Shown: in pieces, positions 12,201 through 54,094 of the stretch
Layout: each line of letters opens with the position of its first letter
Position numbering within the stretch: position 1 is the stretch's first letter
Virus record (IMG/VR): IMGVR_UViG_3300042519_000302
Direction: 5' to 3' (one strand)
Origin: a virus
Taxonomy: Duplodnaviria; Heunggongvirae; Uroviricota; Caudoviricetes
Length of the DNA stretch: 64,000 nucleotides
Notes under the pieces: generated by a model
Told to the model about the DNA's origin: nothing
The model's input: only the letters and a program-made list of their open reading frames with translations
The model's database searches: none
Made by a program: the position numbers and the translations under genes

Positions 12201-15200
12201 ATATCTGTATTGTTGTTCTGTAAATAAGATGTAAGTCCAGGTATAACGTTGTCCTCATTTGCTGAGGTAACAATTACACCAAGTATATTATCCTTATTAG
12301 GGAATGAGTTGAACTTGTTACCAAAGAAGTTTGCACGCTCATAGCCTAGTATATTCTTACTAGCAATAGAAGATGTAACTAATATCTTTGGACCTTTCTT
12401 AGAGATAGGTTCATACTTATCACTGTATGGAGCATTGTCTAATTTCTCTTTACTTAATGTACCAATAACTGCATTGATAAGTTTACTATCAGCTTTTAAT
12501 TGTTTCTCTTGCTCTTGTTGTTTTTTGTAAGTTTCTGCCACTGCTTCAAACTTATTGAGAATCAACTCTTTAGCTTGTAGTTCTTGCTCAACTTCTTTAA
12601 GTTGAGTTTGCAATGCTTCTAACTCTCCTCTAAGCTCACCAATTGTACGCTCATTAGGAATAACATCTATTTCATCAATGTTTGCAATATCTCGTTCAAA
12701 CTCAATAAGATCATTTAATAGATCTGGATTAGCTTGTAAATAAGTTTCATAGGTAGATGTTCTATTGCTAGGCTCATACCCTACAACCATTGTAGTGTTT
12801 AAGAAATCTCTAATACCTTGAGGAGTGTATGGCAAGTTTGGATACTTAGCTTCAAACTTCTTAATTAAATCTAAAGCAAAATCAATAGCTGTTTTCAAAG
12901 CACCATCTACAAGATCTATTAACTTAGAGATAGAATTAATATTTAATCCTGTCTCTATAAGCATATCTTGAAGGTCAGTAGTCTGTTCTTTTAAGTCTTG
13001 GATTAACTCTTCTCCACCTGGAACTTCGTCAATGTTCTGAGCCATGTCAGCAACATATGCTTGATTAAACTCAAGTTGTTCTTGTTCTGCTCTTAAACTT
13101 TCAAGTTCACTAGTCAATTGTTCTTTCATTCTTGAAAGCTTAACAGCACTAGCAACAGCTTTGGCTGTAGTTCTCTTGAATGCTTTTGTTTTTGTAAGCT
13201 CTCCTTTACTTATCTTTTCTTCTAACTCAACTAAGTCAGCAACAATTTTATTAAATTGTTCTTGCTTTTGTTTTATTAAATTTGTAGTCTTTTGTAAATT
13301 ACCAGATACCTCATCAAATAACTCACCTAATATCTTAAGTCTACCAGCTCTTTTTGCGTCTACTCTATCATCTACTGCTGCTATAAATTCTTCTTGAGCT
13401 TGTTGTTGAACAGCAGTTAACTTTCCTACAGGCATAATCATAGCCTCGTTGAACCCTGGCTTAGCTACAAACTGATCATTAGTAATCTCAATGGTCTTGA
13501 TTCTACCTTTGGCATCTTTATAAACAAAGTTTAGTACATTGTCTTTTGTAGAGTATTCTAATCTACCAGGTTTCTTTCCACCATTCTTTGCACCAAAGTT
13601 AAATTCATAAGTTACATTAGCATGTTCTAAAAAGTACTTAGCCTTCTTATTATTCAAGGTGTCAGACACTTTGCCTAATTTATAATCAGCTAACTCTTCT
13701 TTAGATACATCTCTTATAACACCATTAGAATCTTTTATCTTAATAGTCCCATCTCCATTATCTCCAAGAATAGTTAATCTAGGAAAGCCATATACCTTTT
13801 CACCACCTTTGCTATACCCCACTCTTCTACCTAAGAAGTATTCAGTACCCACTTCTATGTTTTCTTCACCATCTTTAGTCTTAACTGTAACAGTTTCTTT
13901 TGGAGCTGTTTCATCTATAACAGTTTCATCCATACTCTGTTCAGTGCTATACTTACTAGGATTTTTCTTTATATCACTATATTCAAATAAGAAGTTGTCT
14001 CTACGCAAAGCTAGCTCTGCAACATCTTCTAATGTTTGAATTAATTCATCTTCATTAATAGACTTTGATGCCTTAACTTTTTCAACAGCTGCTATATAAG
14101 AATCACTGTTACCAGTAGTTAAATCATTAACAATACTAGTAGTATCAATACCTACACTATCTAATACTCCCATTAACTGAGGAAGTCTCTCATCATAGTC
14201 TGCTACCTTGGTTGCAGCATATATCATCTGATCCATCACCTTTTGTGAATAGACAGGTTTACCATCAGTATTTATTAATCCACCATAACGTACGTCTAAT
14301 GATTGATATAATGATTTGATGTTCTCAGCAGTTGTTTCTAAATTAGTTAATCTCTGTAAGTATGCTTCTTTAGTATCTGTATCTAATGCTTTACCTTCTG
14401 CTTGTAATTCAGCAAAACCTTCATCAGTTGCTGCTTGTTTTTTATAGTCATTAATGTCACTTTGAACAAGATCAAATCTACCATACTTAATTCTAGGAGT
14501 TAAGTAGTTGATTATATAATCACGCTCTAGGTCTTTGCTTTCTAAAACATCACCTCTTCTCAATGCTTGTTCTCTTTCCTCTTGTATAGTTGTACCTCTA
14601 TTGACAGAACCTCTTAACTCTTTAGTAAAGTCAGATAGATTAGTTTTGTTGAATCCACTAATAGCAGCCTGAGTATTTTTTGAAATTTCTTTTGCTTCAG
14701 AATACTTGCCACGACCTAACATAAGTGCTCCAGACAATCCTCCAATAAGAACATTCTCCATACCCTCATTAGTAGTCAAGGTTTGAGTAATACCTTCAGC
14801 CATACTATCTAACCAACTTGTTGGTTCATTATTGTATTTCTTATTGTAATAATTTTCTGTAGTTTTACCAATTGCATATTGTGCACCTTCTTCAAATGCT
14901 TCAGAAGCAGAGAAGGTATATGGTCTTATCTTGTTTAGAGTAGACAAGATTTTTCCAAATCTATTAGGAGCTGCTATGTATTTACCAGCAGCATCTGTTG
15001 TAACTTCACCAATCTCTTTTGTAAGAGAATTGATAATACCTTTCTCTCCCTTATATGTAGCTCCTAATATTTTAGGAAATTGAATATAGTTAGTAGCAGT
15101 CAATAAACCAACATTAGCAAAATAAGAATTGTTACCTACTTCTTCAGCAGCCTGATTAATTTTTGCTAAGTCTTCTCCTATAGGTTCATCACCACCATTG

Positions 15201-16129
15201 GCAGCTTTGTATTCTTGTATCTTCTTATTTCTAAAATCATTAAGATTATGGTATGCTTCAAAGCCAGCCTCACCCACTGTACCTAATGCAGCAACAGTAA
15301 TTTGTCCTCCTCTACCCAATGAAGAATAAGAAGACAAAAACTTATCAGAAAGACCTTTAAGTTTACCATATGTAGAAGCAGCTTTATCTGCAGCAATTAA
15401 TGCTTCTTCTGAAGCAGCAAGAGCCTCTGCTCCTTTGCCCATTGAAAATAATCTAGCTGTAAGTGGAATTGATTTCAAAGCAGCAGCATATGCTCCTCCA
15501 GATAATGCAGCACCTGCAGCAAAACCTAAATTCTTAACAACACCATCCCAAAGAAAGTTAGCACTAAATAATTTGCTTGGAGAATACCAATTGGCTTCTC
15601 TCTCATCAGTTTTATAATAGTTAGGTAATATATCTTCAGAAGCTTTTACAATCTTTTCATCTAAAAATCTATTCATCTCATTGTCATAAAGACTTGCAAA
15701 TCTTCCATCTTGACCCCATCTAATTATTCCATTTACTAATCCTACAGTAGATTGTAAGAATGTAGTTCCTGTTAGAACTAATCCTTTACCTACACCATTA
15801 ACCATTTTGTTAGCCCATCCTTGTCCTTGGGCATATGCATCTTCATTATTATAATCTCCAGGCATGAAGTTATCAAATCTATTAGAACTAGCTTCTGCTA
15901 ATGTTCTAGATATAGAACCACTAGTTTGTCTTCCTAAAGCATTAGATGGTGTAAGCACTTTATTCTCCCAAGCACTAAGAGCAGAAGGAGTAGGTTCTCC
16001 ATCAAGACTTGGCATACTACTATCTAGTCCTCTGAATGGAACAGAAGGTTGACCTTCTGCTATAGGAGGTCTATAATCGTTGAACTTAGTTTCCAATAAA
16101 GATCTATCTATTAAAGGAGTATCTGCCAT
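3263..16129 (-). CDS. Giant 4288-aa virion cargo/ejection protein. It carries a DFDID motif (aa 3429-3433, nt 5831-5845) of the type in the metal-binding loop of double-psi beta-barrel RNA polymerases, as reported for crAss-like virion RNAPs. It also carries an HEVFH zincin-like motif (aa 2060-2064, nt 9938-9952). There are N-terminal Gly/Ala-rich hydrophobic 'glycine-zipper' segments and long coiled-coil stretches.
   Basis: A single uninterrupted 12.9-kb ORF. I located the motifs by direct back-translation of the DNA. Its position at the distal end of the late operon next to other huge proteins matches the crAss-like cargo/virion-RNAP block. The RNAP assignment is inference from one short motif. 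Confidence 0.6.
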   Translation of the reverse strand: MADTPLIDRSLLETKFNDYRPPIAEGQPSVPFRGLDSSMPSLDGEPTPSALSAWENKVLTPSNALGRQTSGSISRTLAEASSNRFDNFMPGDYNNEDAYAQGQGWANKMVNGVGKGLVLTGTTFLQSTVGLVNGIIRWGQDGRFASLYDNEMNRFLDEKIVKASEDILPNYYKTDEREANWYSPSKLFSANFLWDGVVKNLGFAAGAALSGGAYAAALKSIPLTARLFSMGKGAEALAASEEALIAADKAASTYGKLKGLSDKFLSSYSSLGRGGQITVAALGTVGEAGFEAYHNLNDFRNKKIQEYKAANGGDEPIGEDLAKINQAAEEVGNNSYFANVGLLTATNYIQFPKILGATYKGEKGIINSLTKEIGEVTTDAAGKYIAAPNRFGKILSTLNKIRPYTFSASEAFEEGAQYAIGKTTENYYNKKYNNEPTSWLDSMAEGITQTLTTNEGMENVLIGGLSGALMLGRGKYSEAKEISKNTQAAISGFNKTNLSDFTKELRGSVNRGTTIQEEREQALRRGDVLESKDLERDYIINYLTPRIKYGRFDLVQSDINDYKKQAATDEGFAELQAEGKALDTDTKEAYLQRLTNLETTAENIKSLYQSLDVRYGGLINTDGKPVYSQKVMDQMIYAATKVADYDERLPQLMGVLDSVGIDTTSIVNDLTTGNSDSYIAAVEKVKASKSINEDELIQTLEDVAELALRRDNFLFEYSDIKKNPSKYSTEQSMDETVIDETAPKETVTVKTKDGEENIEVGTEYFLGRRVGYSKGGEKVYGFPRLTILGDNGDGTIKIKDSNGVIRDVSKEELADYKLGKVSDTLNNKKAKYFLEHANVTYEFNFGAKNGGKKPGRLEYSTKDNVLNFVYKDAKGRIKTIEITNDQFVAKPGFNEAMIMPVGKLTAVQQQAQEEFIAAVDDRVDAKRAGRLKILGELFDEVSGNLQKTTNLIKQKQEQFNKIVADLVELEEKISKGELTKTKAFKRTTAKAVASAVKLSRMKEQLTSELESLRAEQEQLEFNQAYVADMAQNIDEVPGGEELIQDLKEQTTDLQDMLIETGLNINSISKLIDLVDGALKTAIDFALDLIKKFEAKYPNLPYTPQGIRDFLNTTMVVGYEPSNRTSTYETYLQANPDLLNDLIEFERDIANIDEIDVIPNERTIGELRGELEALQTQLKEVEQELQAKELILNKFEAVAETYKKQQEQEKQLKADSKLINAVIGTLSKEKLDNAPYSDKYEPISKKGPKILVTSSIASKNILGYERANFFGNKFNSFPNKDNILGVIVTSANEDNVIPGLTSYLQNNNTDIDPTKTIALVMVEDQGNGNFKLVGQNGQPLAEGQDKLENAVFQVMPDESLQWGPDFGNETMFRNNTPEQTRKELKEQYIAWRKETLKSPDVSLQSITPSFGRPTRVTVTLAEGKKVTDPNAAVSVKAAGLIEDKDLIEKQLIEVPTVTKDISKGSTEFTDVLGRVFLVLDNAYVKLKNRKFNSKEATTIYKVLNQLSKNVFDDKGVEARSEYLIDWLRSVTFWGKPREGKDPGYNSIWFEREDGELRLFFSGKGESLSFTPQGMETQENSIVTLLQNMYNNVNARKVQNTDEYNLSYEEIIGIGENGVPQTKDWENYQTYLLSDEGRTANEIPLFTDIAALESPEDTNREGVYFTLRDAADNFTITEVVRTVPKSVVPGGVKAKPAAPVVTQEDDDESIVIGEEGKVAPIEKKPNSKFVLDGKTKNIFITPKGTRIAFIANRNLLAQGDIDKGIKILKGEDLDKAEKAILATGVKKEGIGRALKAPIANLLNVPVKKITTTEDDDSFTIPDEADADSIVIEDEEALAPVVSDIETKKAAIKGSLAAQGTFIELEIIGDTGKEFLLTVDRKGNISLFSEKQPDGSYKSGEAATKEAVINLYKKYVPSSTILKIQKWLASFTGSWAAPETEDGKNYDKAEKALNSELAALEGGKKTPPQVTTKGPAVKSSAIKAALLEDEEGDLREILENQIGTFKSENWKKLEQWLKANLPNVPVYRVKNVIKATGGKKAWGMYKNGAIYIYTNAEAGTAYHEVFHAIWNMFSDPKERKAIVNEFKNRKGSFTDRVTGQDIKYSEATPGQIKEELAEEFREYVLDKKIPPKPTDGRPYIVKMFSDLVNFIKEYFLGPQAARNTEELFKRIGEGYYKNASPYQSKLALAKPGIIDVEDAIGDPTSEYSLIAKGLLGEQVHDTIQQMTYATLTNLIATNQSLFDIPSKSRAVIYKDAKDNLRYTVVGKIKNVAAKMINEGKASKEDVAPEVAQAEQLFAIIDKNWDEITDIFEEQLLSYSIEFDENDDTQKTNENNTGKGDYQESEKIDMFKKANAAIKLLLATIPYRNARGKRELSSINGVKLIPMSKVYVDLKNALYNSDTADDMMEKLREFVESQKPEYGVIYERLTGQPSSEKLNPYANVKTDADLQLIHSFYKVMKGQAPDVVTVYTLPDGTVVTTDMSVGTASKQIANDMESSIISSIQNNLGKYYSYDAPNKMYVSIKKNVESQPLGTLERSVAFMKSLGVDIPIRMIRKFGFETDFNNAVAGIKKNLLEAEKIKFISSKTINTAGRVKEIAEMLAKIQNPDFESTYFNLEGDRVQSFIGGNAISSLRDFLTKITNKKQLVGSRYEYLLTDNFTTGSVFMDKIFDKDSGNKLPKGNDILTTAYAGGMIDDGLGKRKDPSSLTPSERLKEELNLNLAGYYMNLVPGDASLDWANYVGNNITLNSLKKDNSPIHRIFKGYFLSELAVSREGRKIVQDENKTRKTTDLRFFKNILGQKLHDDVISYDPKKDKSLEEVYAQFEPRINNAIDAFVKRDVERRKTVYSNYNILSEDDAGFNFNGVEFEKKTALSENNVDVNIKYLAVNYMINNIELHKLVYSDPYFYKDELKRIKSFLSPRQAIIYGSAGLNAAMNNVYNEGYTDVKDIGFTKFTDDYFKTITLDDVKGIADVEGFSKEYSSFTETDGGGMITMKAYRNFRIRAANWNSNEERQYRYDVAFEKREKGKDLSDDELNLLEEGNPQVKSAYTPLKPIVAGAKMSSKSYNDVVLDKFALYPLSYRVLHEINKDSNAIKLYNKMQEADIDYAVFDSGRKVGADKLIKLYDEQGNFNDSAIKKADKINVPFSIISVQSEVPSKDEAIVTRGSQITKLVTLDFLQAGVPIDFMPTEKDFNKRLEAWEALEDEKAMSDASPLFKQILENQDLLEEMASIGYQNLLDKLGIKQTKQGFEILDPEKIAKTLRSELFKREVNRNIVAALVGFEKGQVLIEASPMYSQVRNILYSIVDKNIVRPKINGGLKVQIPSTLFESVRPVGKNGLYESNVLKFYEKGGERVAEVMVGRWFDSDMSDEELLTYLNDTPEGQALLKGVAFRIPTQKQNSVDVIKIAKFLPKEFGDSVVVPAALVQKVGSDFDIDKLSMYFKNIYKGKDGKPKLIPYFGIGKDAIKKFEEMFDKGEFLSSEQLQELDRYIAEERVLLEDLIQEKSNASKLITAMIGNLNGLVNETEITEEFTKGIKAKDQIINLLYKKSIENQYVQSLENIIGSEANYTRLVTPNNAKLLKDMSIDITDKLGLGSFDYSSTDNMLNQIFMSRLRQAFVRGKYAIGLAAVAQTNHAQNQRSNMYVDRSLMSKLSKSDRKWLGDGIVKFGKYNTVKVGSRTVPSLSGIKDANNKNDISDIIGMFIDGYVDIAKGPWIMELGANPNVAPTWLFLVKIGVPIKEVAYFMNQPIIRDYVRELENSGYTWLFNDSTVTTIKESEKYKVDQSKLQGLNSIPNLTNLEKNIGKKSFDVAGKAEQQFILNEFLKYGMMANQLFKVVQGSNFDTTSFNDPMLIFKKEEQLSQARETMISSVDNLLNNSFIGRVRIGLRDSRNAIGNTVLTSDTRRVRAVLQRVLRPYVNMADRQFVKVARKAVNDLFDWAVQIDPTFKINMERDLLSKNGTAKQITDYFNKIKNDPEHVLHNNVIINSLAPKFSGAEEERPNNLYMTGKDNKVYDQNKVIYGFEELRNYMDSTGDLPLYKKLVKLAILQSGLSTSPISFTSLIPYDDFVEEYNEILSRLETLPNLEDFATLNVFERNNWNDDEIVPHKKAQWKTEKQDDGKLKTRYDNGAIKILNTGANIAMKAGTIPQLIKISTLSRESTKDIIVYSWEEIPKGKTRAEMVKASDFSFIKKGLFKKVTENGVDPLITYNRKGYEFIVYKAINAWGDSFRANEFYDGANQSKIDNGFMKVKEASDEAIASAFMSTQKTPPVEASEIDDVLNKKDGRCKKS

Positions 16130-36043: not shown

Positions 36044-38476
36044 TTATTTTAATTTAGCTTCTAGTTCAGCAATTCTTTTTTCTAAAGCTGCAATCTTTAA
36101 TGTATGCACATCCATGTAATTTACAGATAATTTTTCATTTCCTGAAACTGCATCTGGTAGTACTGATTGTACTTGTTGTGCAGAATAACCATATCTAATT
36201 GCATTACTGTCTTCATCTGTTCTTGTAAATTTAATTACATCTAGTGGCAAATCTATAGATGGGTTTGTTTCTAATACATTTTTAAATCTAATATCTGATG
36301 TTTCAAAATAACCAGCAGCATTTAAATAAATTCCACTAGAAATATAAACTCCTGTATTTGCTGTTGCACTATTAGATGTACCATTAGCTGTAAGTACAGC
36401 TTCTGCAGTGGTTGGAGATATAGAAGTAAATCCTGTTCCTGATGTACCACTAGCACCATTGGCTCCAGAGGTTCCTGAAGACCCAGGAGTACCAGTATTT
36501 CCAGATGTTCCAGAAGATCCATTTCCTCCATTCGCACCAGATGTACCTGCAGTTCCAGAAGAACCACTTGCACCACTTGTTCCACTTGTTCCACTGCTAC
36601 CATTCCCTCCGTTAGCTCCACTTGTACCACTAGAACCATTTCCTCCAGGACTACCAGTAGCACCAGATGTTCCAGAAGATCCAGAAGAACCACTAGAACC
36701 AGACGACCCACTTGTTCCTGGTGATCCAGGACCACCAGTAGCACCAGATGTTCCAGAGGAACCATTACCACCATTAGCTCCAGATGTTCCTGAAGATCCA
36801 GAAGAGCCACTAGAACCAGAACTACCAGATGATCCAGATGTACCACTAGCTCCAGATGTTCCACTTGATCCACTTGATCCACTTGATCCTGAAGAACCAC
36901 TTGTACCAGATGCTCCAGAAGTACCAGATGAACCATTTGCTCCATTAGCACCACTAGTTCCACTTGAACCAGAAGATCCAGAAGATCCAGATGAACCACT
37001 TGTTCCATTAGCTCCACTTGTTCCTGAAGATCCTGAAGATCCTGATGTTCCTGAAGAACCAACAGCACCATTAGCTCCAGCTGTTCCACTTGACCCACTA
37101 GAACCAGATGATCCACTTGATCCACTTGAACCAGAAGAAGCAGAAGTACCTGAAGATCCAGAAGATCCAGAGGAGCCTGATGATCCTGATGACCCTGAGG
37201 TACCTGAAGATCCTGAAGGACCTGTCACACTCGCTCCGCTTGTACCTGCAGTTCCAGAAGAACCATTTATACCTGCAGTTCCTGAAGTTGCATTTACACC
37301 ACTTGTACCACTTGTACCAGTACTTGTACCAGAAGTGGCAGCAGTACCTGATGTACCTGTTGATCCTGAGCTACCTGAACTTCCTGAGCTACCTGAAGAA
37401 GCAGATGTTCCAGATGTACCTGTGGTACCTGAAGTACCAGATGACCCTGAAGAACCAGATGAACCTGAAGAAGCAGACGTACCAGCTGTGCCAGAAGTAC
37501 CAGCTATTCCAGAAGTACCATTACCACCAGATGCACCAAACAGATTTACTGTCCATACAGCATAGGTTCCTGCACCTGCTGTGGTGGTGACATTAATTAC
37601 AATAGCACCTGTTCCACTATTATAAGAGGTAACAGTTCCTTGCATTGTATTACTTACATCATATACTATGATAGCTGTCTGTGCAACACTATATGCTAAC
37701 CCTGTTCCTACTGTTAAACTTTTTGATCCTGTTCCTATTAATAAAGAAGTTGTAGAACTTGTTAAATATCTATCTCCATCTTGACCTGCAGTTCCAGAAG
37801 ATGCTGATGTGCCAGATGTTCCAGATGTTCCAGCTGTACCAGTTAATCCACTAGAAGCAGAGGTACCAGAACTTGCACTTGTACCAGATGTTCCATCTTG
37901 ACCAGATGTTCCTGCTGTGGCATCTCTACCACTAGTTCCACTACTTCCATCTGTTCCAGAAGTAGCAGAAGTTCCATTTGAACCATCAGTACCTGAAGTA
38001 CCACTAGTAGCAGAAGTACCTGAAGTACCACTTGTACCACCTGTGCCACTCACACCAGCAGAACCACTAGTGCCATTTGAACCAGCTCTACCAGAAGAGC
38101 CACTAGTACCACTAGAACCACTTGATGATGTTCCAGATGTACCTGTAATTCCAGATGAACCAGAAGTACCATTTGTTCCAGAAGGACCTGTAACACCAGA
38201 AGTTGCAGATGTTCCATTGGTTCCAGATATGCCAGACGAGCCAGATATACCTGAAGTACCAGAGGTACCATTAAGACCAACAACACCATTACAAAGAGCA
38301 TCATCTATTTTTGATAGAGCACAGTCTAAGTTTTCTCCAGTTTGAATTCCTGAACAAGGAAGGTTAGGTCCATTATATATAACACGATCTGCTGTAGTTT
38401 CACAAGGGATAGAACCACAGTTTTCACTAGGTTGATAATATGCGTTATAACAAGGATCGCCAGGATTGCAAGCCAT
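36044..38476 (-). CDS. 810-aa tail fibre. It has a Cys-rich N-terminal anchor, a long collagen-like Gly-X-Y region (G-S-S/G-T-S triplets), and a C-terminal intramolecular-chaperone / peptidase S74 autoproteolytic domain (SDIRFK ... YGYSAQQV ... coiled coil).
   Basis: Gly falls at every third residue across more than 500 aa. The C-terminal ~120 aa matches the endosialidase-chaperone (S74) pattern, with the Ser-Asp ... Lys dyad context and a terminal LEKRIAELEAKLK helix. Confidence 0.85.
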   Translation of the reverse strand: MACNPGDPCYNAYYQPSENCGSIPCETTADRVIYNGPNLPCSGIQTGENLDCALSKIDDALCNGVVGLNGTSGTSGISGSSGISGTNGTSATSGVTGPSGTNGTSGSSGITGTSGTSSSGSSGTSGSSGRAGSNGTSGSAGVSGTGGTSGTSGTSATSGTSGTDGSNGTSATSGTDGSSGTSGRDATAGTSGQDGTSGTSASSGTSASSGLTGTAGTSGTSGTSASSGTAGQDGDRYLTSSTTSLLIGTGSKSLTVGTGLAYSVAQTAIIVYDVSNTMQGTVTSYNSGTGAIVINVTTTAGAGTYAVWTVNLFGASGGNGTSGIAGTSGTAGTSASSGSSGSSGSSGTSGTTGTSGTSASSGSSGSSGSSGSTGTSGTAATSGTSTGTSGTSGVNATSGTAGINGSSGTAGTSGASVTGPSGSSGTSGSSGSSGSSGSSGSSGTSASSGSSGSSGSSGSSGSSGTAGANGAVGSSGTSGSSGSSGTSGANGTSGSSGSSGSSGSSGTSGANGANGSSGTSGASGTSGSSGSSGSSGSSGTSGASGTSGSSGSSGSSGSSGSSGTSGANGGNGSSGTSGATGGPGSPGTSGSSGSSGSSGSSGTSGATGSPGGNGSSGTSGANGGNGSSGTSGTSGASGSSGTAGTSGANGGNGSSGTSGNTGTPGSSGTSGANGASGTSGTGFTSISPTTAEAVLTANGTSNSATANTGVYISSGIYLNAAGYFETSDIRFKNVLETNPSIDLPLDVIKFTRTDEDSNAIRYGYSAQQVQSVLPDAVSGNEKLSVNYMDVHTLKIAALEKRIAELEAKLK
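36556..38281 (-). repeat. Highly repetitive tandem 9/18-bp DNA units that encode the collagen-like Gly-X-Y triplets.
   Basis: Repeated units such as ccagaagaaccact and ccagatgatcc are visible. The repeat region generates long spurious ORFs in the other five frames. Confidence 0.8.
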
Positions 38477-43768: not shown

Positions 43769-45322
43769 TTAGAATTGTGGTATTTCCTCAATCAAGACTG
43801 TACGAGACAAATCTTCAATGAACACATCACAACGATCTTTCATCCAAATCTCATATCCAGGGAATTTGTTCGCAGAACTCATACCTTGAGACTTAGCAAA
43901 GCCTAAGTGGTGACGAGTACCATCGATATAACCCCAAGTCATAGAAGGTGCACCCTTCATACGTACTTCACGAATATTGTTGATCATAGAACCATCAGAC
44001 ATTGGAGATACATCAAACACCATAAATACTGGAGTTGACTTCTTGTTTTGTCCAAATTCTAAGTTTGTTTGAGGTAAGTCTAATTCTTTCAAGTGAATTA
44101 ATTCAACACGACCAGTCTCACGAGTTACCATTGCATCGAATGCAAAGTTGTAAGTGATATGTTGACCTTCACCTTGCATGTATCTGTTACCAGAATCAGC
44201 CATGAAAGTAAGACCAGAATTCAAAGCATCTGTTTTTAAAGCTTGTTGGAATACATCAAAGCCAGCTTCATTAGTGTACATTTTAACACGTCTGTCTTTA
44301 ACATCCACACGTCTGTAGAATAAGTCACCAAATACAGAACGAATCAAGTTAGCTGTAAACTCACCACGATTGTATTGTACTAAGTTACCATTGTTACGCA
44401 TTCTGTGATATACACCAGCAGAAGTACGCTTTAATTCTTGCTTAGAACCATTAGTCTTCACAGTTCCAGGACGAGCCCAGATCATACGCTTAACTTTTAA
44501 TTCTAACATAGACTTACGCATCCAGAACTCAATAAATGGTTCCCACTTAACATCGTTACGAGTTAAAGGTAATTGGTTACGTCTTTGAGGAGCATATACT
44601 AAGATGTCTAAAGGTTTGCCAGAAGCATCTCTCATCATCTTGTCATCAGCCCACTCAGTAATTTTGTGCTCATAACCATATGCAGAACCTAAAGATTCAA
44701 ACATTGTGATTTGCTCACCCAAACGAGGAAGACCTAATAAGTCTTGATCGAACTCACCAATAGCAGCATCAACTAACTCTAATTCAACACCCACTTGCAA
44801 GAAGATAGGGCTTACGAAATCAACAGTTGGGTTGTCACTCACTAAAGTTACAGTGTATAAGTATCCAACATTCCAAGGAACTGGATCTTTTACTACGTAG
44901 AAACGTGGACCATATTGACGTGTACCAACAGATACAATTGCGTTCTTAGAAAATTCATTAGTGTCAACGATGATTTGAAACTCTTGTCCATCAATACCAG
45001 GCTTGTTTAATTCCTGTGTTGAAGTTGGAACGTCAATGATTTTTGGGAACTTGTAAGGTACTTGTACTTGCCATTTCCAAGCATCACTATTATTGTCGAT
45101 ATAGTAAGGTGTGCTCTTGTTAATCATATCCAAGAAGTCATTACTATAAAGAGAACTCTGAGTGTACAAGCTGATGATTTTTTTATCATAATCAGCAGGC
45201 TCAGTTGAGTGAAAGCTCTCTAGATGGTTCGAGTCAGTCAATTTACCTACTGCACGCTTGTCCATAGAAGCTACTCTAGCATAGGTAAAACCAGTTAAAC
45301 CTGGGATTGTTTGAATTGCCAT
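43769..45322 (-). CDS. 517-aa putative major capsid protein.
   Basis: Size and position match the MCP slot (scaffold-like gene upstream, strong terminator downstream). I made no motif-level confirmation. Confidence 0.5.
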   Translation of the reverse strand: MAIQTIPGLTGFTYARVASMDKRAVGKLTDSNHLESFHSTEPADYDKKIISLYTQSSLYSNDFLDMINKSTPYYIDNNSDAWKWQVQVPYKFPKIIDVPTSTQELNKPGIDGQEFQIIVDTNEFSKNAIVSVGTRQYGPRFYVVKDPVPWNVGYLYTVTLVSDNPTVDFVSPIFLQVGVELELVDAAIGEFDQDLLGLPRLGEQITMFESLGSAYGYEHKITEWADDKMMRDASGKPLDILVYAPQRRNQLPLTRNDVKWEPFIEFWMRKSMLELKVKRMIWARPGTVKTNGSKQELKRTSAGVYHRMRNNGNLVQYNRGEFTANLIRSVFGDLFYRRVDVKDRRVKMYTNEAGFDVFQQALKTDALNSGLTFMADSGNRYMQGEGQHITYNFAFDAMVTRETGRVELIHLKELDLPQTNLEFGQNKKSTPVFMVFDVSPMSDGSMINNIREVRMKGAPSMTWGYIDGTRHHLGFAKSQGMSSANKFPGYEIWMKDRCDVFIEDLSRTVLIEEIPQF

Positions 45323-46635: not shown

Positions 46636-46753
46636 ATGTAGTTGTATTTATTTGGTTTTCAATGTAAAAGTATATCAAGTTAAATTAACAGCAAAGAGAC
46701 TAGGCTCTATATAGGCTATTATTCAATATAATATAGCATTAATATTTTTTACT

Positions 46754-47284
46754 CTAATCTAATTTGTTAAGAAAATTGTCATTTATAAGCCTATAGCTTC
46801 TTATTGGAGCAAGATCTGTAAGCGTAACTTGTTGAACTTCAACTCCCCACTTACGTGCTTCCACCCTAACTTTCTTTGTCAAAATATTATCAAGTTCAGA
46901 ATCTGTACATTCTTCTAAGGTCATAGACATAATAATATTTTTTATAATACTTTGAGACATATCTGATAGGGCATCCTGTGCGTCATAGACTTCTAATAGG
47001 AATATCTTAACATCTGCTATCTTATATTTGACAAGTCCTTTAACTACAATGTTTTGCTTATCTTTAGTGTATAAGGATTGAGCATCAAGACTAAGTGTTG
47101 TAACTACTACATGCTGATCAATTGCCTCATCAAAGAAAGGTATCTTAAAATGTATACCTGGTAATAGCACTCGATTAAACTTTCCAAATCTAAGGAGTAC
47201 AGCTTGTTCATAGTCTCTGATAATGATGAATGGTAGAATATGATTCCACCATTCAATCAATACATCAATTAGTTTATCAAACAT
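46754..47284 (-). CDS. 176-aa SPFH/band-7 (stomatin/prohibitin/HflK-like) domain protein.
   Basis: I judged a close match to the SPFH core: ...IIRDYEQAVLLRFGKFNRVLLPGIHFKIPFFDEA ... TKDKQNIVVKGLVKYKI ... MTLEECT... The reference pattern is the band-7 consensus ...EYERGVIFRLGRF.RVL.PGLHFIIPFIDRV ... TKDNV.V.VDAVVYYRV. Confidence 0.7.
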   Translation of the reverse strand: MFDKLIDVLIEWWNHILPFIIIRDYEQAVLLRFGKFNRVLLPGIHFKIPFFDEAIDQHVVVTTLSLDAQSLYTKDKQNIVVKGLVKYKIADVKIFLLEVYDAQDALSDMSQSIIKNIIMSMTLEECTDSELDNILTKKVRVEARKWGVEVQQVTLTDLAPIRSYRLINDNFLNKLD

Positions 47285-47286
47285 TA

Positions 47287-49878
47287 TTATTTAGTTTTAG
47301 GCTTAGCCTTTGCTCTTCCTTTTGCGTTCTCTTTAGCAATTGCTAAATCATTTGTTTGGTTTTCTCTAGATACTTGTATCTTTTCTCTCTCAACTTGTAA
47401 CTTTTCAGAAGCAAGTCTGTTTTTACTTTGAGCATCTTGTAGCTTCATTCTATAGTCCATAGATGCTCCTTCTTTTTGCATTGCTATTTTTTCAATTTCT
47501 AATACATCAGGATCACCACTTGCATCAATGTCTGATAAAGGACCTGACTTAGATTCTGCTGCAATTAAAGCAATTTCCTTTTTATTAATTCTATCAAGTT
47601 CAGCATTATAGTTCTCATTAGCTACTTTTTCTGCTGCTTGTTGTTGAGTTGATTCAATTTGAGCTTGAGCTATTTGTTGTTGTTGTTGAAGTTCTTGTTG
47701 CTTTTGTTGCATTTGTTGATCCTGCAATTGTTCTTGTCTATCCTTAAGAGTCTTAAATACTCTCTTCATTTGTCTAATAGAGTTAGTACTGTAAAGCTCA
47801 ATTACATCATGTAAAGATCCACCATTTTGTATAACAGCTTGAGACAATCCTCTAATTTCATTAAACATTTGTTTATCTTCAGGTCTATTAGTCAAGTAAA
47901 CTTTTAAATCTCTGAATCTAAGATCTGTACCATTTACAGATACAAATGCAGACTCTCCTTCAGAAGTAATATAAGATATAGTAGACTGTGGTTTAGCACT
48001 CTCAACATATAGAGCTGCATCAATAACAGCTTGATATAACTGACCCATGATGTATTCATGAGCTACAAATAAAGGTTCTGTTTGAGCATAAGATTGTGTG
48101 ATGGCAGCTTGCGTACCTGTAGCTGATTCACTAGCTTGTACAGATCCAAGTCTTTGTCTAGACATACCTATAAGTTCCCAACATTCATTCTTTATTTGTT
48201 GAGCTAGAGTATATCTTGCTTGGATCTCCTGTGTACGTGTAAGGTCAAGACTTGTGAATTGATTGAAGCTAGATGGACTCTTTAAGTTCTCTGGACTATC
48301 ATCAATAAATACCACTCCTCTATTACGTGCTTCCATTTCCCAGATATCTAATGCATCTTGAGCATCACCATCCTTAGGAATAGGAATATGTCTGATAGAC
48401 ATTAACTGCACCTTACCCACTTCCTTCTCAAGTAACTTATACAATTGGTTCATACAAACATTGTATATAACTTGGAAAGGTTTCATCATATCTACTAAGC
48501 TCTTAGCCTCTGTATTCTTAACTTCAAACGTTTGACCAATGATTGGACAATAAGGTAATAACTTATAAGGTTTGATATGGTAGATATCTGGACCAATCTT
48601 AATACCTTGGTACCATTGGTTAATCCATCCCCACTCTAATGATTCTTGTGTAGGAATAGTTCCAGACTTATAATTCTCATCTACTAACATAGATTGCTCA
48701 TTACCCATCTCATCTGTATATATTACTTTACCTATCTTCTTTTTAGAAATCCAATACGCTCTTACCACTACATATTTGTAACCAAACGAAGATACATTAG
48801 ATGTAAGTCCTAAGAAGTCCTTAAGACCATCATTGTTCTCTTTCATTTCTGATTCAATAAGCATTCTAGTTTGTAAAACTAATGGATCAAATGTATCATA
48901 CTGGATAGAGTCGTTACCTGGAACAGCATTAGGATTACCTAAGTTAGATTCACGTACATTGATCAATCCATAGTCTTGTAATGAACTACGTAAGTGATCT
49001 ATTTCATCTTTAGTTAAATCTGGAATAGACTCAATGATTTCAGATAATTCTAACACTTGTACAGTACCAGCAGCATAAGCTCCTTGTGCACGTCCTGTAG
49101 TATCAGATATCCACTTTCTATCTGGAGTAGTTAAGAACCAAGTGTTTTTAGGATTGGCTACCTCTACATTAAATCCAAGCTTGGAGTTGTCCTCATAGAT
49201 ATGAAAGAACTCTCTAGCAGATATTAAAAGGTCTCTAAATGAATCTTCACCTTTTTCTTTAAGATTAAACTCCATCTTCTGAGCTGTAAGAATATGATTT
49301 GCCCACTTCTCTGCTGTAGATGTATAACTATCTAACTCATCCTTAACTTCATCTAAAGTCATTTGATTTATCTCCTCATCATCAAGTTCTTCTCCAGACA
49401 TAGCAGCATCTTCCATTATTTTCTGCTTAGCCTTATTAACAACATAATCATTTAATATCTGAGTCTTAAATTCTAACTCCTCAGATTTACTATCATCATC
49501 AAATGCTTTGACACGAAATGCATCAGGTCTTTTGCTGATCTCTCCTATTAATTCATTGATAGGAGTGGTCATTATAGAATAATGTTTTACATAAGCAGGA
49601 AGCTCAAGATCTGATGTAAGCACATCTGTAAAACTTCTAACTTCTGGTTCTACATAGAAATCTTCTCTTCTTAAAATACCTTTAATAAGGTCATAGTTTT
49701 TTACAAATGTATCTCTAGCTTTGACATACTCAGCATAAGCTTTGTTTGCAAAGTAGTCCATTGAATTCTTTATCCAGCTTTCATCCATCTTTTCCTTCTC
49801 AGTTTTAAACTGATCAGGGAAGATATTCAGATAAGCATATCTTATTGTTGCGTCTTTCGTGTACCTTATAATTGCCAT
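47287..49878 (-). CDS. 863-aa portal protein.
   Basis: Large ORF immediately downstream of the terminase with a TAATG overlap at 49878. It has a Q-rich coiled coil and a basic C-terminal tail, and its size fits crAss-like portals. Confidence 0.6.
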   Translation of the reverse strand: MAIIRYTKDATIRYAYLNIFPDQFKTEKEKMDESWIKNSMDYFANKAYAEYVKARDTFVKNYDLIKGILRREDFYVEPEVRSFTDVLTSDLELPAYVKHYSIMTTPINELIGEISKRPDAFRVKAFDDDSKSEELEFKTQILNDYVVNKAKQKIMEDAAMSGEELDDEEINQMTLDEVKDELDSYTSTAEKWANHILTAQKMEFNLKEKGEDSFRDLLISAREFFHIYEDNSKLGFNVEVANPKNTWFLTTPDRKWISDTTGRAQGAYAAGTVQVLELSEIIESIPDLTKDEIDHLRSSLQDYGLINVRESNLGNPNAVPGNDSIQYDTFDPLVLQTRMLIESEMKENNDGLKDFLGLTSNVSSFGYKYVVVRAYWISKKKIGKVIYTDEMGNEQSMLVDENYKSGTIPTQESLEWGWINQWYQGIKIGPDIYHIKPYKLLPYCPIIGQTFEVKNTEAKSLVDMMKPFQVIYNVCMNQLYKLLEKEVGKVQLMSIRHIPIPKDGDAQDALDIWEMEARNRGVVFIDDSPENLKSPSSFNQFTSLDLTRTQEIQARYTLAQQIKNECWELIGMSRQRLGSVQASESATGTQAAITQSYAQTEPLFVAHEYIMGQLYQAVIDAALYVESAKPQSTISYITSEGESAFVSVNGTDLRFRDLKVYLTNRPEDKQMFNEIRGLSQAVIQNGGSLHDVIELYSTNSIRQMKRVFKTLKDRQEQLQDQQMQQKQQELQQQQQIAQAQIESTQQQAAEKVANENYNAELDRINKKEIALIAAESKSGPLSDIDASGDPDVLEIEKIAMQKEGASMDYRMKLQDAQSKNRLASEKLQVEREKIQVSRENQTNDLAIAKENAKGRAKAKPKTK

Positions 49879-51917
49879 TATGAAAACAATTTATTTCGTT
49901 TATATTTATTTTTTGATTGTCCAAACATGTTGTTTCTAGAGTCAGTGAAGAGTATGTTTCCTCTCTTCTTCTTAAACATAGAAGCAACTCGTTCATCACC
50001 TGTTCCACCTATCTTACCCATTATTGGGTCCATCTTTAAAGCTTGTGCTATGGCTAACTCTGCAGCTATGATTCTATCAAAGTTACCTGAATCATTATAT
50101 TGAATAATCTCTTCAAGCAATACAGGATCAAATATCTTACTCACACCTAACACTTCTCTAATCACTTCTCCTGCATCATTCTTTTCTACAAAGATTGGAG
50201 CTTCCATATACTTCTTTAAACAAGTGTGAAGATAGTCAATTATCTTCTGACTTGAACGATGAATACCATAATCTCTTTTTACAGTAGTGTTAGGAACAAT
50301 TTCCTTAAGCCACTCAGGTTGTCTTTCTAAAAAGTGAGCATCTCCTTTAGCTTTCATATATTCAATAAAGGATATATCATCATTCTCACAAAGAGCTCTA
50401 GCGTTATAATACTTTATAAGAAGTCTAGCTTGTTCTTCCCAAGTTTCTTTCTTATCAGGTCTTGCACAATACGAAGCTACAAACATATCTTGATACTTCT
50501 CACCACTAATTTCATGCATCCTTTTATATATGTATACAGATCCAAGCGAAGTTGAATATGCAGACTTACCTTGTCTATATGGATCGACTCCTGCTACATA
50601 CAATCCATAAGGTGGATTATCTATAGGAAATTCATATATAACAATAGGTGCTTCTTTTAAGTCTGAGTTCTTTAGAGGGAAGTTAGATATAGGTAGTTTA
50701 TCTGTAAACTCATGAGCTATCTTCTCTCCATCATTAAACAATATAACAGGAGTTCCTGTTCTTTCTTGTTGTAACAGTCTAGTCTTCTGTCTCTTAGCAC
50801 TCTCAATGTCAAATATATTTGTGTCCTCGTTCAAGAAGATATCATCTACTTCTTGAGGATAGTACATCTTTTCTTTTAAATAGGCTATACGATCACCAGC
50901 TTTCTTAAGTCTTTCTAGGTTTTTGTTAGTAATTTCTGTAGCCTTATCTTCATTACTTACAAGCATTTTAACATTATGTAAGTCTGAACTAGTTGGCTCG
51001 TTTAAATATTCTCCTAGTGTAGAATCCTCCTTTGCCTCCATTCTATATTTATGGGAGATAAACAAACCATGTATACGTTTGTCATCTTTAGCATTATTAT
51101 ATGTAAGGAAATTAAAGTTGTCTACGTCAAACATTAAACTTTTGGCATCCATGAATTTCTTCATGTCCCCACCTGTACCAGTAAGAATGGGACTACATCC
51201 CCAGCCATAGGGTGTAGTGAAACCTGGAATAGCAGCCTGTAAGCCTCTAAGAAAATTCCCTTTACCAATCTCATCTATAATTAATTTACGTGGTTTTGTA
51301 CCTGCAATTGCCTCTTCATTATTACCTTCATCAAGGTTACGTATTAGAATGGAAGAGAATGGGATACGTTCACCAGACTTGGTCTTTATACCTAGAGTCA
51401 CTTGGTTCTTCCAGTTATCCTCAATTCTCTGCCACCTCCAATACTCAGGAATGAAATTCAATCCTTTGTCAATCTTATCAGTAATCAGTTTTATATCTGG
51501 GGCATTTAAGCCTGCTATGATATTCTGACTGTTTTCATCAAAGGTCGCACCCCATGCAATATAGGATGCTTCAAGAACAGACTTGGCAAAACGTCTAATA
51601 CCTAGAATGACTAAGCCCCTCTTTTCTTGTTGAGCTCTGTCAATTTCGTTCGTCACAAGCCATTCATTATCTCTCAATAGGGGATTGGCATATTTCTGTG
51701 CAATCCTCCCATAACTATCTATTATATCTACTTCTGTATGCCATATATTAAGGTGCCAGTAAAGGAAAGGGTTAATATATGTACCTCCCATCATAGCTCC
51801 ATTTAAGCATAGCTCTCTGTGGAAGTCAAAGAATGGCTTACACTCCTGAGATTCTTTATCAGGAATACGCTTCTGATTTATAAACCAGTCTTTGTAGTCT
51901 ATACTTTGTAGTTCCAT
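49878..51917 (-). CDS. terL: 679-aa terminase large subunit.
   Basis: It has a deviant Walker A (GIRRFAKSV), a Walker B (KLIIDEIG), and a C-terminal RNaseH-like nuclease segment (VAGVDPYRQGKS). It sits adjacent to the portal. Confidence 0.8.
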   Translation of the reverse strand: MELQSIDYKDWFINQKRIPDKESQECKPFFDFHRELCLNGAMMGGTYINPFLYWHLNIWHTEVDIIDSYGRIAQKYANPLLRDNEWLVTNEIDRAQQEKRGLVILGIRRFAKSVLEASYIAWGATFDENSQNIIAGLNAPDIKLITDKIDKGLNFIPEYWRWQRIEDNWKNQVTLGIKTKSGERIPFSSILIRNLDEGNNEEAIAGTKPRKLIIDEIGKGNFLRGLQAAIPGFTTPYGWGCSPILTGTGGDMKKFMDAKSLMFDVDNFNFLTYNNAKDDKRIHGLFISHKYRMEAKEDSTLGEYLNEPTSSDLHNVKMLVSNEDKATEITNKNLERLKKAGDRIAYLKEKMYYPQEVDDIFLNEDTNIFDIESAKRQKTRLLQQERTGTPVILFNDGEKIAHEFTDKLPISNFPLKNSDLKEAPIVIYEFPIDNPPYGLYVAGVDPYRQGKSAYSTSLGSVYIYKRMHEISGEKYQDMFVASYCARPDKKETWEEQARLLIKYYNARALCENDDISFIEYMKAKGDAHFLERQPEWLKEIVPNTTVKRDYGIHRSSQKIIDYLHTCLKKYMEAPIFVEKNDAGEVIREVLGVSKIFDPVLLEEIIQYNDSGNFDRIIAAELAIAQALKMDPIMGKIGGTGDERVASMFKKKRGNILFTDSRNNMFGQSKNKYKRNKLFS

Positions 51918-53785: not shown

Positions 53786-53848
53786 AGGTATGTATATCTT
53801 ACCTATCTACAAATAACAATTTTAGTTATTATAAAACTTAATGCTATA

Positions 53849-54094
53849 TTATGCATCAAATCTCCTAAACAGGAAAATAAAGCTAAATAACAACAGTCCT
53901 ATCCTAAGCTCTTGTTCTAATCCTCCATCGTCTAGCTTGTAGTTTCTATTAGACACTCCTAGTTCAAAACTGTTATAGTCTTTAGGGAGAAACTCTATAC
54001 CTATCTCATACTCCTCAAAGCAGACTAACCCCCATACAATCACTGCCATACTAAGCAATATCACTATTGTCAACAACACATTTACTACTACCAT
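53849..54094 (-). CDS. 81-aa small membrane protein with an N-terminal TM helix and a second C-terminal hydrophobic segment. It is the first gene of the minus-strand operon.
   Basis: Hydrophobic stretches VVNVLLTIVILLSMAVIVWGLV and IGLLLFSFIFLF. Confidence 0.45.
   Translation of the reverse strand: MVVVNVLLTIVILLSMAVIVWGLVCFEEYEIGIEFLPKDYNSFELGVSNRNYKLDDGGLEQELRIGLLLFSFIFLFRRFDA

Follow-up and report, generated by a model that had tools for sequence, protein, structure and literature searches.

Why would a tailed phage carry an SPFH/Band 7 (stomatin-like) gene among its head genes? The question is raised by a stretch of 64,000 nucleotides from a virus of the Caudoviricetes (IMG/VR record IMGVR_UViG_3300042519_000302), hereafter the window, whose minus strand carries the long late operon of a freshwater crAss-like phage. 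In this operon, an open reading frame (ORF) of 176 residues lies between the genes for the portal and for a scaffold-like protein of 425 residues (p425). A first-pass annotation, made from the sequence alone, had assigned the ORF to the SPFH proteins, noted that many tailed phages encode their prohead protease at this place, and suggested that the product could modulate a host protease, organise assembly at the membrane, or be associated with the capsid. SPFH proteins are universal membrane organisers, their roles in bacteria are poorly understood, and to our knowledge the versions encoded by phages have never been tested. We found that the gene encodes a shortened SPFH protein, which we term mini-SPFH, that this gene is under strong purifying selection where it is present, and that it is dispensable within its clade, in which the same slot carries alternative cargo.

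The mini-SPFH of the window is an SPFH/Band 7 protein. The Pfam profile Band_7 (PF01145) matched residues 21-160 over profile positions 2-147 of 176 with 96.8 bits (gathering score 23.6, E = 2.1e-27), which is far beyond chance, and was the sole significant Pfam match of the protein. The AlphaFold2 model, for which the input was a family alignment of 55 sequences, has a mean predicted local distance difference test (pLDDT) of 92.9 and a predicted TM-score (pTM) of 0.82. It consists of a helix (residues 2-16), a beta-rich SPFH1 and an alpha/beta SPFH2 (together residues 19-160), and a tail of 16 residues modelled with low confidence. When compared with the PDB using Foldseek, the model matched human stomatin with E = 4e-14 and a TM-score normalised to the query (TMq) of 0.77. 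HflK/C, QmcA, prohibitin, erlin and flotillin were also matched, and the values for stomatin, HflK/C, QmcA and prohibitin ranged from E = 4e-14 to 1e-9 with TMq of about 0.7-0.78. All of the 50 best matches were SPFH structures, except for the major vault protein at rank 50. The SPFH structures of the PDB are around 20% identical to the mini-SPFH over 146-168 aligned columns and are 80-120 residues longer. The Pfam match, the confident model and the fold matches thus confirm the assignment made by the first-pass annotation, and both peptides it had quoted are present in the translation. The location it gave, between the portal and the scaffold-like gene, is also correct; we add the strand (minus), and note that "scaffold" is here an inferred name (see below).

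The mini-SPFH has lost the transmembrane (TM) segment and the cage-forming coiled coil. Checks of hydropathy and sequence in the window protein and in its family revealed neither a TM segment nor a signal peptide as N-terminal membrane anchor. The best 19-residue Kyte-Doolittle window had a median of 1.07 in the family (range 0.53-2.07) and a value of 1.28 in the window protein, whereas it averages 2.17 in the long SPFH proteins of viral contigs, which have obvious TM helices. We found no lipobox at the N-terminus (MFDKLIDVLIEWWNHILPFIII), which has no cysteine. The label "lipoprotein" of phrog_200, the PHROGs family that matched the protein (E = 4e-10), is therefore inapplicable, and the match itself is confined to the SPFH core (profile positions 103-258 of 379). 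A lipoprotein identity was rejected on these grounds. Of the N-terminal features proposed for checking at the outset, the TM segment is thus missing, and so is the lipobox, but an amphipathic helix is present, conserved and acidic. Among the 55 family members, its hydrophobic positions are 2, 5, 6, 8, 9, 12, 13 and 16, its polar, mostly acidic positions are 3, 4, 7, 11, 14 and 15, and the proline that directly follows it (P18) is nearly invariant. The hydrophobic moment is 0.56-0.61 and the net charge about -2. The family profile, which scored stomatin (89 bits) above QmcA (79) and HflK (72), places this helix on the second arm of the intramembrane hairpin of stomatin.

The other end of the protein is equally short. 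The mini-SPFH stops 16 residues past the last strand of SPFH2, about where the CC1 region of cellular SPFH proteins starts, and hence lacks the part from which SPFH cages form their wall and cap. The alignment, the model and the solved homologues all indicate that the C-terminal coiled-coil region driving the oligomerisation into rings or cages is missing. Cellular SPFH proteins close into cages of 16 to 24 subunits through this coiled coil, and the mini-SPFH would not be expected to form a cage without it. We regard it as a cage-less module of the stomatin type, with an acidic amphipathic helix in place of the N-terminal membrane hairpin. As it has no signal peptide, the protein is probably cytoplasmic.

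If the gene served head assembly, it should be a constant feature of phages with the same head. All 80 IMG/VR loci that we selected with the SPFH protein had the order TerL-portal-SPFH-p425-MCP-p321-p243-p386, where MCP is the major capsid protein. In these loci, SPFH was 71-100% identical and MCP 93-100% identical to those of the window, and the mini-SPFH always started 2 nt after the portal gene. Since this set had been chosen by the SPFH protein itself, we repeated the search with MCP. This MCP was present in at least 600 viral contigs. Among the 80 best loci, in which it was at least 95% identical, 67 extended far enough upstream for the slot to be scored. Four states of the slot were found. 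The window-type SPFH (71-100% identical) occupied it in 54 loci, a mini-SPFH of 175 residues with 31% identity in three (140 bits with the family profile, 55.8 bits with Band_7), and two unrelated ORFs of 79 and 89 residues in five. In the last five loci the slot was empty, the portal gene being directly followed by the region upstream of p425. A mini-SPFH therefore follows the portal gene directly in 57 of the 67 loci, and ten have no SPFH in the slot, with portals about 80% identical. The ORFs of 79 and 89 residues are not degraded SPFH, as they were not matched by the profile with all filters off.

The variation does not follow the phylogeny of the phages in any simple manner. The 31% identical allele is closer to another member of the family (P0235, 41% identity) than to the window type, which suggests that it was acquired independently. 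Four of the empty loci could be tested. Each was nearest, in nucleotide identity of portal and MCP, to loci with SPFH and not to another empty locus, and the distribution is hence patchy. Around 120 nt upstream of p425 were conserved in all four states. The SPFH gene thus occupies a cargo slot with defined borders, namely the end of the portal cistron on one side and the regulatory region of the scaffold-MCP unit on the other. These results show that the mini-SPFH is dispensable within the clade and that its slot carries alternative cargo. Because nearly the same capsid is built without it, the mini-SPFH is not a substitute for the prohead protease, a scaffold, or an essential assembly factor.

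More distant phages were compared as well. One divergent lineage (L148) keeps the gene at this position with a portal, MCP and SPFH that are respectively 65%, 88% and 45% identical. The nearest isolate by portal, Leptolyngbya phage Lbo-JY46 (28% identity), has the order TerL-portal-scaffold-like-MCP with nothing between portal and scaffold-like gene. In gut Suoliviridae this interval holds other small genes and the mini-SPFH is not among them, so that the content of the slot also varies across Crassvirales. Conservation at the same position in crAss-like genomes, which the first-pass annotation had put forward, thus stands for 54 of the 67 loci and for L148, and fails for the ten loci without SPFH, for Lbo-JY46 and for gut Crassvirales. 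The prohead-protease slot and the head-assembly role that it had considered are not supported, in view of the loss or replacement of the gene in phages with nearly identical capsids, the empty slot of Lbo-JY46, and the finding of the gene elsewhere in the genome of another crAss-like lineage.

Some of the alternative contents deserve a description. The 79-residue ORF is acidic and overlaps an ORF of 84-89 residues (L253 4085-4550, L277 4098-4563, L281 4104-4569). Neither has a Pfam match. The latter has a conserved LHEHFHLKHPDWSE motif (HExxH), from which it may be a miniature zinc metallopeptidase. In the gut crAssphage cr10_1, the gene between portal and scaffold-like gene encodes a protein of 432 residues annotated as "peptidase" (L083 9646-10944). 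We found no peptidase family in it with Pfam, only a sub-threshold match to an atypical Rib domain, and the annotation looks unsupported.

Dispensability could indicate a decaying gene, and the substitution rates show otherwise. We computed the ratio of nonsynonymous to synonymous substitution rates (dN/dS) between orthologues and the window sequence with the Nei-Gojobori method, using 60 orthologue pairs for SPFH. The ratio was 0.084 for SPFH, 0.085 for TerL, 0.106 for portal, 0.053 for MCP and 0.19 for p425. The mini-SPFH is thus under strong purifying selection where it is present, at the level of TerL, and must be a real, functional and constrained gene. These low ratios, together with the constant length of 176 residues in hundreds of contigs, rule out a pseudogene or a chance ORF.

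The mini-SPFH belongs to a large and coherent family that is present in the databases yet was never characterised. When 1.84 billion cluster representatives (clusters at 50% identity) were searched exhaustively, 4992 SPFH relatives were retrieved, and the best 150 were almost all 157-200 residues long and aligned from residue 1. Among viral predicted structures the best match was A0A6J7WFI0, a protein of 173 residues from an uncultured Caudovirales phage (TMq 0.86; normalised to the target, TMt, 0.88). Every family member with an examined context was in a phage or a viral contig. A search of bacterial and archaeal assemblies found cellular SPFH at around 30% identity and one binned contig of the window's phage, and nothing else. 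A degenerate DNA pattern for PG[LI]H[FW]KxPF retrieved both mini and long viral SPFH genes. Scans with single distant representatives were less productive: P0124 and P0212 matched nothing and P0159 gave two weak matches only. PHROG and Pfam annotation of the neighbours in the distant loci was mostly empty.

The genes that could be identified around the family members are very diverse. The mini-SPFH gene of a T7-like podovirus comes after TerL, where the late region ends. That of a lambda-like head module lies in front of TerS-TerL, and one further phage has it divergent from the terminase block. Elsewhere it neighbours a gene for a DNA primase, for an exonuclease or for a ligase, or those for Prim-Pol and PolA. 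One locus resembles a lysis cassette (L213 2602-4055), with TM proteins of 68 and 81 residues, an Amidase_2 endolysin, and a mini-SPFH gene whose start overlaps the endolysin stop; in another (L209) the mini-SPFH gene is the last of a late operon containing an amidase. A further member (P0249) is found in an accessory island (L211 5678-10507) with Acb1 (anti-CBASS), Gad2 (anti-Gabija), DUF6433 and a metallophosphatase, in a phage that also carries a ribonucleotide reductase (RNR) and homing endonucleases of the SegE type. In a distant crAss-like phage (L147 1-5742, IMGVR_UViG_3300025678_000025), a mini-SPFH gene whose product is 60% identical to that of the window is flanked by those for tail ring protein 1 and the muzzle protein. 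The two flanking proteins share only 23-32% identity with their counterparts in the window, which implies either horizontal exchange between crAss-like lineages or an unusually strong conservation of the SPFH. The mini-SPFH is therefore mobile between genome positions and between types of phages, and its contexts are those of a mobile accessory gene, not of a structural gene specific to one module.

Comparison with known SPFH systems helps in narrowing down what such a protein might do. Stomatin and QmcA give the best profile and fold matches, share the SPFH1/SPFH2 core at around 22% identity, and have a segment, KEYERAIIFRLGRI, that resembles RDYEQAVLLRFGKF of the mini-SPFH. Yet, they are 255-305 residues long, and the mini-SPFH is devoid of their hydrophobic hairpin or TM segment, coiled coil and C-terminal cap. 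It also has no NfeD/YbbJ partner gene and sits in a phage late operon. HflK/HflC share the SPFH core as well. HflK is the best NCBIfam match (E = 2.8e-21), and the Joint Genome Institute (JGI) labels relatives of the mini-SPFH as HflC/HflK. However, the scores are far below the equivalog cut-offs (HflK TIGR01933, 76.1 bits vs. 159.4; HflC TIGR01932, 54.3 bits vs. 134.4). Moreover, the mini-SPFH is a single gene and not an hflK-hflC pair, has no coiled coil of the kind with which HflK/HflC enclose FtsH in a 24-mer cage and, having no N-terminal TM segment, is not periplasmic, unlike HflK/HflC. The low scores and the wrong topology rule out an orthologue of HflK/HflC.

Phages were already known to carry long SPFH/Band 7 genes, i.e., ORF098c of 44RR, ORF064c of Aeh1 and ORF139c of RB43 among T4-like phages, those of the Vi01-like PhiSH19 and of Sajous1 (gp200), gp51c of the N4-like Agrobacterium phage OLIVR1, and B1VFA_024 of a Rhizobium phage (PMC1524935, PMC3220722, PMC10892097); the "lipoprotein" family phrog_200 is of this long kind too. 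Like the mini-SPFH, they are phage-borne, are found in accessory regions and are known as annotations only. They differ in their length (around 260-345 residues), N-terminal TM or lipoprotein signal, C-terminal extension, and early or auxiliary location, whereas the mini-SPFH of the window is truncated, has neither TM segment nor lipobox, and lies within a string of head genes. The first-pass annotation was thus right in finding the position unusual. The viral protein A0A6J7WFI0 has the length and architecture of the mini-SPFH (28% identity), and its name, "HflK protein", is automatic only. In the literature we found no functional study of a phage SPFH, Band 7 or prohibitin protein, only mentions at the level of annotation, one of them in a preprint with speculation about a cd03408 domain that BACPHLIP had flagged in the genome of a gut member of the Crassvirales. 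Finally, the mini-SPFH shares with the cargo of morons and hypervariable slots the polymorphism of presence, absence and replacement between conserved flanks, the dispensability, and the horizontal exchange. It differs from them by apparently having no promoter or terminator of its own, by the gap of 2 nt to the portal cistron, and by being kept in around 85% of the clade under strong purifying selection.

We propose that the mini-SPFH is the optional, horizontally exchanged cargo of a hypervariable slot, and that it docks on a host membrane-associated complex and alters its activity; we give this reading a probability of about 0.5. Being encoded by the last cistron of the TerL-portal string, the protein would most likely be produced late in infection, and would remain in the cytoplasm, either unattached or at the periphery of the inner membrane. 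It would most likely dock, through its SPFH surface and its amphipathic helix, onto a host complex, for which the candidates are a cytoplasm-facing SPFH assembly of the stomatin, QmcA or flotillin type, a protease of the FtsH type, or a channel. Docking would change the activity of this complex in a way that may be helpful in some hosts and unneeded in others. Late co-expression, location, target and effect are all parts of the proposal, and several observations weigh against it. The N-terminal helix is acidic and not of the usual cationic membrane-binding type, which cautions against presuming that it binds anionic bacterial membranes directly; it may instead pack against a protein surface. 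Without the coiled coil, the ability to join host SPFH assemblies is in doubt, and a cytoplasmic protein would not have access to HflK/C, which face the periplasm. No partner gene of the NfeD type was found nearby (27 window ORFs scanned). The gene does not look like a classical moron, since a promoter of its own is not apparent. Lastly, its presence in around 85% of the clade and its recurrence beside packaging genes in three other lineages leave room for a possible non-essential link with the head or with packaging. An extension of the proposal, which we consider speculative and rather unlikely, is that the mini-SPFHs of unrelated phages form a distinct class of viral effectors, "cage-less" modules that would act on host SPFH assemblies by capping, infiltrating or mimicking them, or else would bind the proteases or channels that are clients of these assemblies, and so disable membrane quality control or immunity late in infection. 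In this view, the presence of two unrelated alleles in the same portal-proximal slot would suggest that expression from this position is itself selected.

Other explanations account for parts of these data. The cargo might take part in an arms race, as a factor of counter-defence or superinfection exclusion in which the SPFH module is an inhibitor or decoy against host or prophage immunity, e.g., one triggered by the portal or the terminase, instead of adjusting housekeeping SPFH or protease complexes. The polymorphism of presence and the allelic replacement in one slot of near-identical phages would fit such a function, and so would the occupation of this slot by other small cargo; the island with Acb1 and Gad2 and the SPFH gene of PhiSH19, which adjoins a gene annotated as superinfection exclusion, point in the same direction. 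Yet, this amounts to one neighbourhood and one annotation. The mini-SPFH matches no PADLOC model of defence systems, its purifying selection is uniform, with no diversifying change seen, and a late operon is poorly timed against early-acting defences, which makes this explanation possible but unlikely. A role in lysis or membrane integrity, whereby a late protein at the inner membrane sets the timing of lysis or keeps the membrane energised until the holin is triggered, would fit the late-operon position in the window, the two loci with amidases described above, and the nature of cellular SPFH proteins as membrane organisers. We regard it as improbable, because supporting contexts number just two out of roughly a dozen, the gene has no lysis gene beside it in the window, the protein has neither a TM segment nor a cationic membrane-binding helix, and the phages without it presumably still lyse.

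Explanations that tie the gene to the head fare worse. SPFH proteins form rings, and a non-essential helper could serve as a platform or chaperone that helps portal-ring or prohead assembly to begin, perhaps at the membrane, or be a minor capsid-associated protein. This would explain the position directly after the portal gene (80 of 80 SPFH-selected and 57 of 67 MCP-selected loci, and also L148) and the vicinity of TerL or TerS in three unrelated phages. However, the slot is empty or filled by unrelated ORFs in ten of the 67 sister phages with MCP at least 95% identical, and the gene is absent from Lbo-JY46 and gut Crassvirales. Other copies are in a tail module (L147) and in replication, lysis and anti-defence regions, and the coiled coil required to close a ring is missing, so that we hold such a helper to be very improbable. 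The least credible explanation, with a probability close to negligible, is a replacement or regulator of the prohead protease. It is inspired by the position, by the regulation of FtsH by HflK/C in cells, and by the lack of a protease family among the 27 largest ORFs of the window, scanned against Pfam, which agrees with what had been noted at the outset. The mini-SPFH itself has no protease fold or catalytic motif (S49/ClpP-like, HK97 S78, U9/U35), scores below the HflK/HflC cut-offs, and is dispensable within the clade, with an empty slot in Lbo-JY46; this dispensability by itself largely refutes the idea. Modulation of a host protease, by analogy with HflK/C, would be possible, although the scores are well below the HflK/HflC cut-offs and the mini-SPFH would face the cytoplasm, unlike HflK/C.

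Phage SPFH genes were known as annotations, and an SPFH-type domain had been flagged in gut Crassvirales in one preprint. The novelty here lies in a distinct and widespread cage-less architecture made of an SPFH core and an acidic amphipathic helix, in its location beside the portal gene, within a cargo slot of an abundant crAss-like clade, and in the natural variants with, without, or with a swapped gene, which show that the mini-SPFH is optional. These variants provide a comparative and experimental handle on a minimal SPFH domain and on the host complex that it may target. They also correct a misreading, in that a gene wedged between portal and scaffold need not be morphogenetic: in crAss-like phages, the place where the portal and scaffold genes meet is a slot for cargo.

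The features of the locus are listed in Table 1. The mini-SPFH gene is tightly coupled to the portal gene, from whose TAA stop its ATG is separated by 2 nt (TAA-TA-ATG), and this leaves no room for a promoter of its own upstream. A scan for consensus promoters and terminators around the gene revealed nothing above the expectation from shuffled sequences. By eye, an AT-rich inverted repeat can be read 3' of its stop codon. Its direct neighbours are the portal gene and p425, and no partner of the NfeD family was found among the 27 window ORFs scanned.

Table 1. Features of the mini-SPFH gene and its flanks (positions in the window).
Feature	Position	Strand	Evidence and remarks
TerL	49878..51917	minus	phrog_6681, E 2.9e-84; opens the TerL-portal-SPFH gene string
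Portal	47287..49878	minus	P22_portal, E 1e-14; phrog_6547, E 3e-100
Mini-SPFH coding sequence	46754..47284	minus	176 residues, ATG to TAG; Band_7, E 2.1e-27; dN/dS 0.084
Acidic amphipathic N-terminal helix, residues 1-17 (MFDKLIDVLIEWWNHIL)	47234..47284	minus	helix 2-16 in model; 55-member alignment
SPFH1 and SPFH2 alpha/beta core, residues 19-160	46805..47230	minus	Pfam match; strands and helices of model; alignments with solved SPFH structures
C-terminal tail, residues 161-176, S-x-R-L motif	46757..46804	minus	pLDDT 67 then 50; R165 nearly invariant
Conserved intergenic region 3' of the slot, 118 nt	46636..46753	minus	alignment across all slot states
p425, scaffold-like, 425 residues	45358..46635	minus	phrog_16294; dN/dS 0.19; no family assignment
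crAss-type MCP	43769..45322	minus	Crass_capsid PF23898, E 1.2e-27; phrog_11589

The protein p425 is homologous to the product of the gene directly upstream of MCP in Leptolyngbya phage Lbo-JY46 (E = 9e-7) and in the gut crAssphage cr10_1 (E = 3e-6). Its N-terminal third is acidic and of low complexity and its middle is Q-rich and resembles a coiled coil, and for these reasons we regard it as a putative scaffold. Our search of the literature found no published support for such a role in phages of the crAss001 type. In the conserved region upstream of p425, the 15-mer TTAATGCTATATTAT (46728-46742, minus strand) is invariant in every slot state of the clade, and it may be a terminator stem, an operator or a recombination site. 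Near-matches to it were no commoner than in shuffled sequences. A second exact copy lies in the opposite orientation in an intergenic stretch close to where the late operon begins (53838-53852, plus strand). Around 30 nt upstream of the p425 start, on the minus strand, TTTG (46695-46692) and TACTTTTA (46672-46665) are separated by a spacer of 19 nt throughout the clade. This arrangement resembles a -33/-7 promoter of the Bacteroidota type and could serve p425 and MCP. Such a promoter-like element suggests a separate, strong scaffold-MCP transcription unit and a host among Bacteroidota.

The clade is apparently one of very abundant environmental crAss-like phages that are uncultured. The MCP of the window's phage was found in at least 600 IMG/VR contigs, with 95-100% identity among the 80 best, and contigs reach 105-118 kb. 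The nearest isolate, Lbo-JY46, is a cyanophage. One contig (L293, JBBAJX010000014.1, 59 kb) with the same gene order, an MCP 96% identical and an SPFH 84% identical, was binned in the metagenome-assembled genome (MAG) Sediminibacterium sp. EUL_022. This and the promoter-like motif are weak hints at a host among freshwater Bacteroidota; binning in a MAG is not proof and may be an artefact. Further downstream of MCP, the late operon encodes the crAss tail ring proteins 2 and 1, the muzzle protein, a collagen-repeat protein and, at its distal end, an ORF of 4288 residues (3263-16129, minus strand). The latter has no Pfam match at E = 1e-3 and, from its position, may be the counterpart of the giant virion or cargo proteins of crAss-like phages. 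The collagen-repeat ORF (810 residues, 36044-38476, minus strand) has seven stretches of collagen triple-helix repeats (E = 4e-59), with overlapping ORFs listed on both strands, and is presumably a fibre protein.

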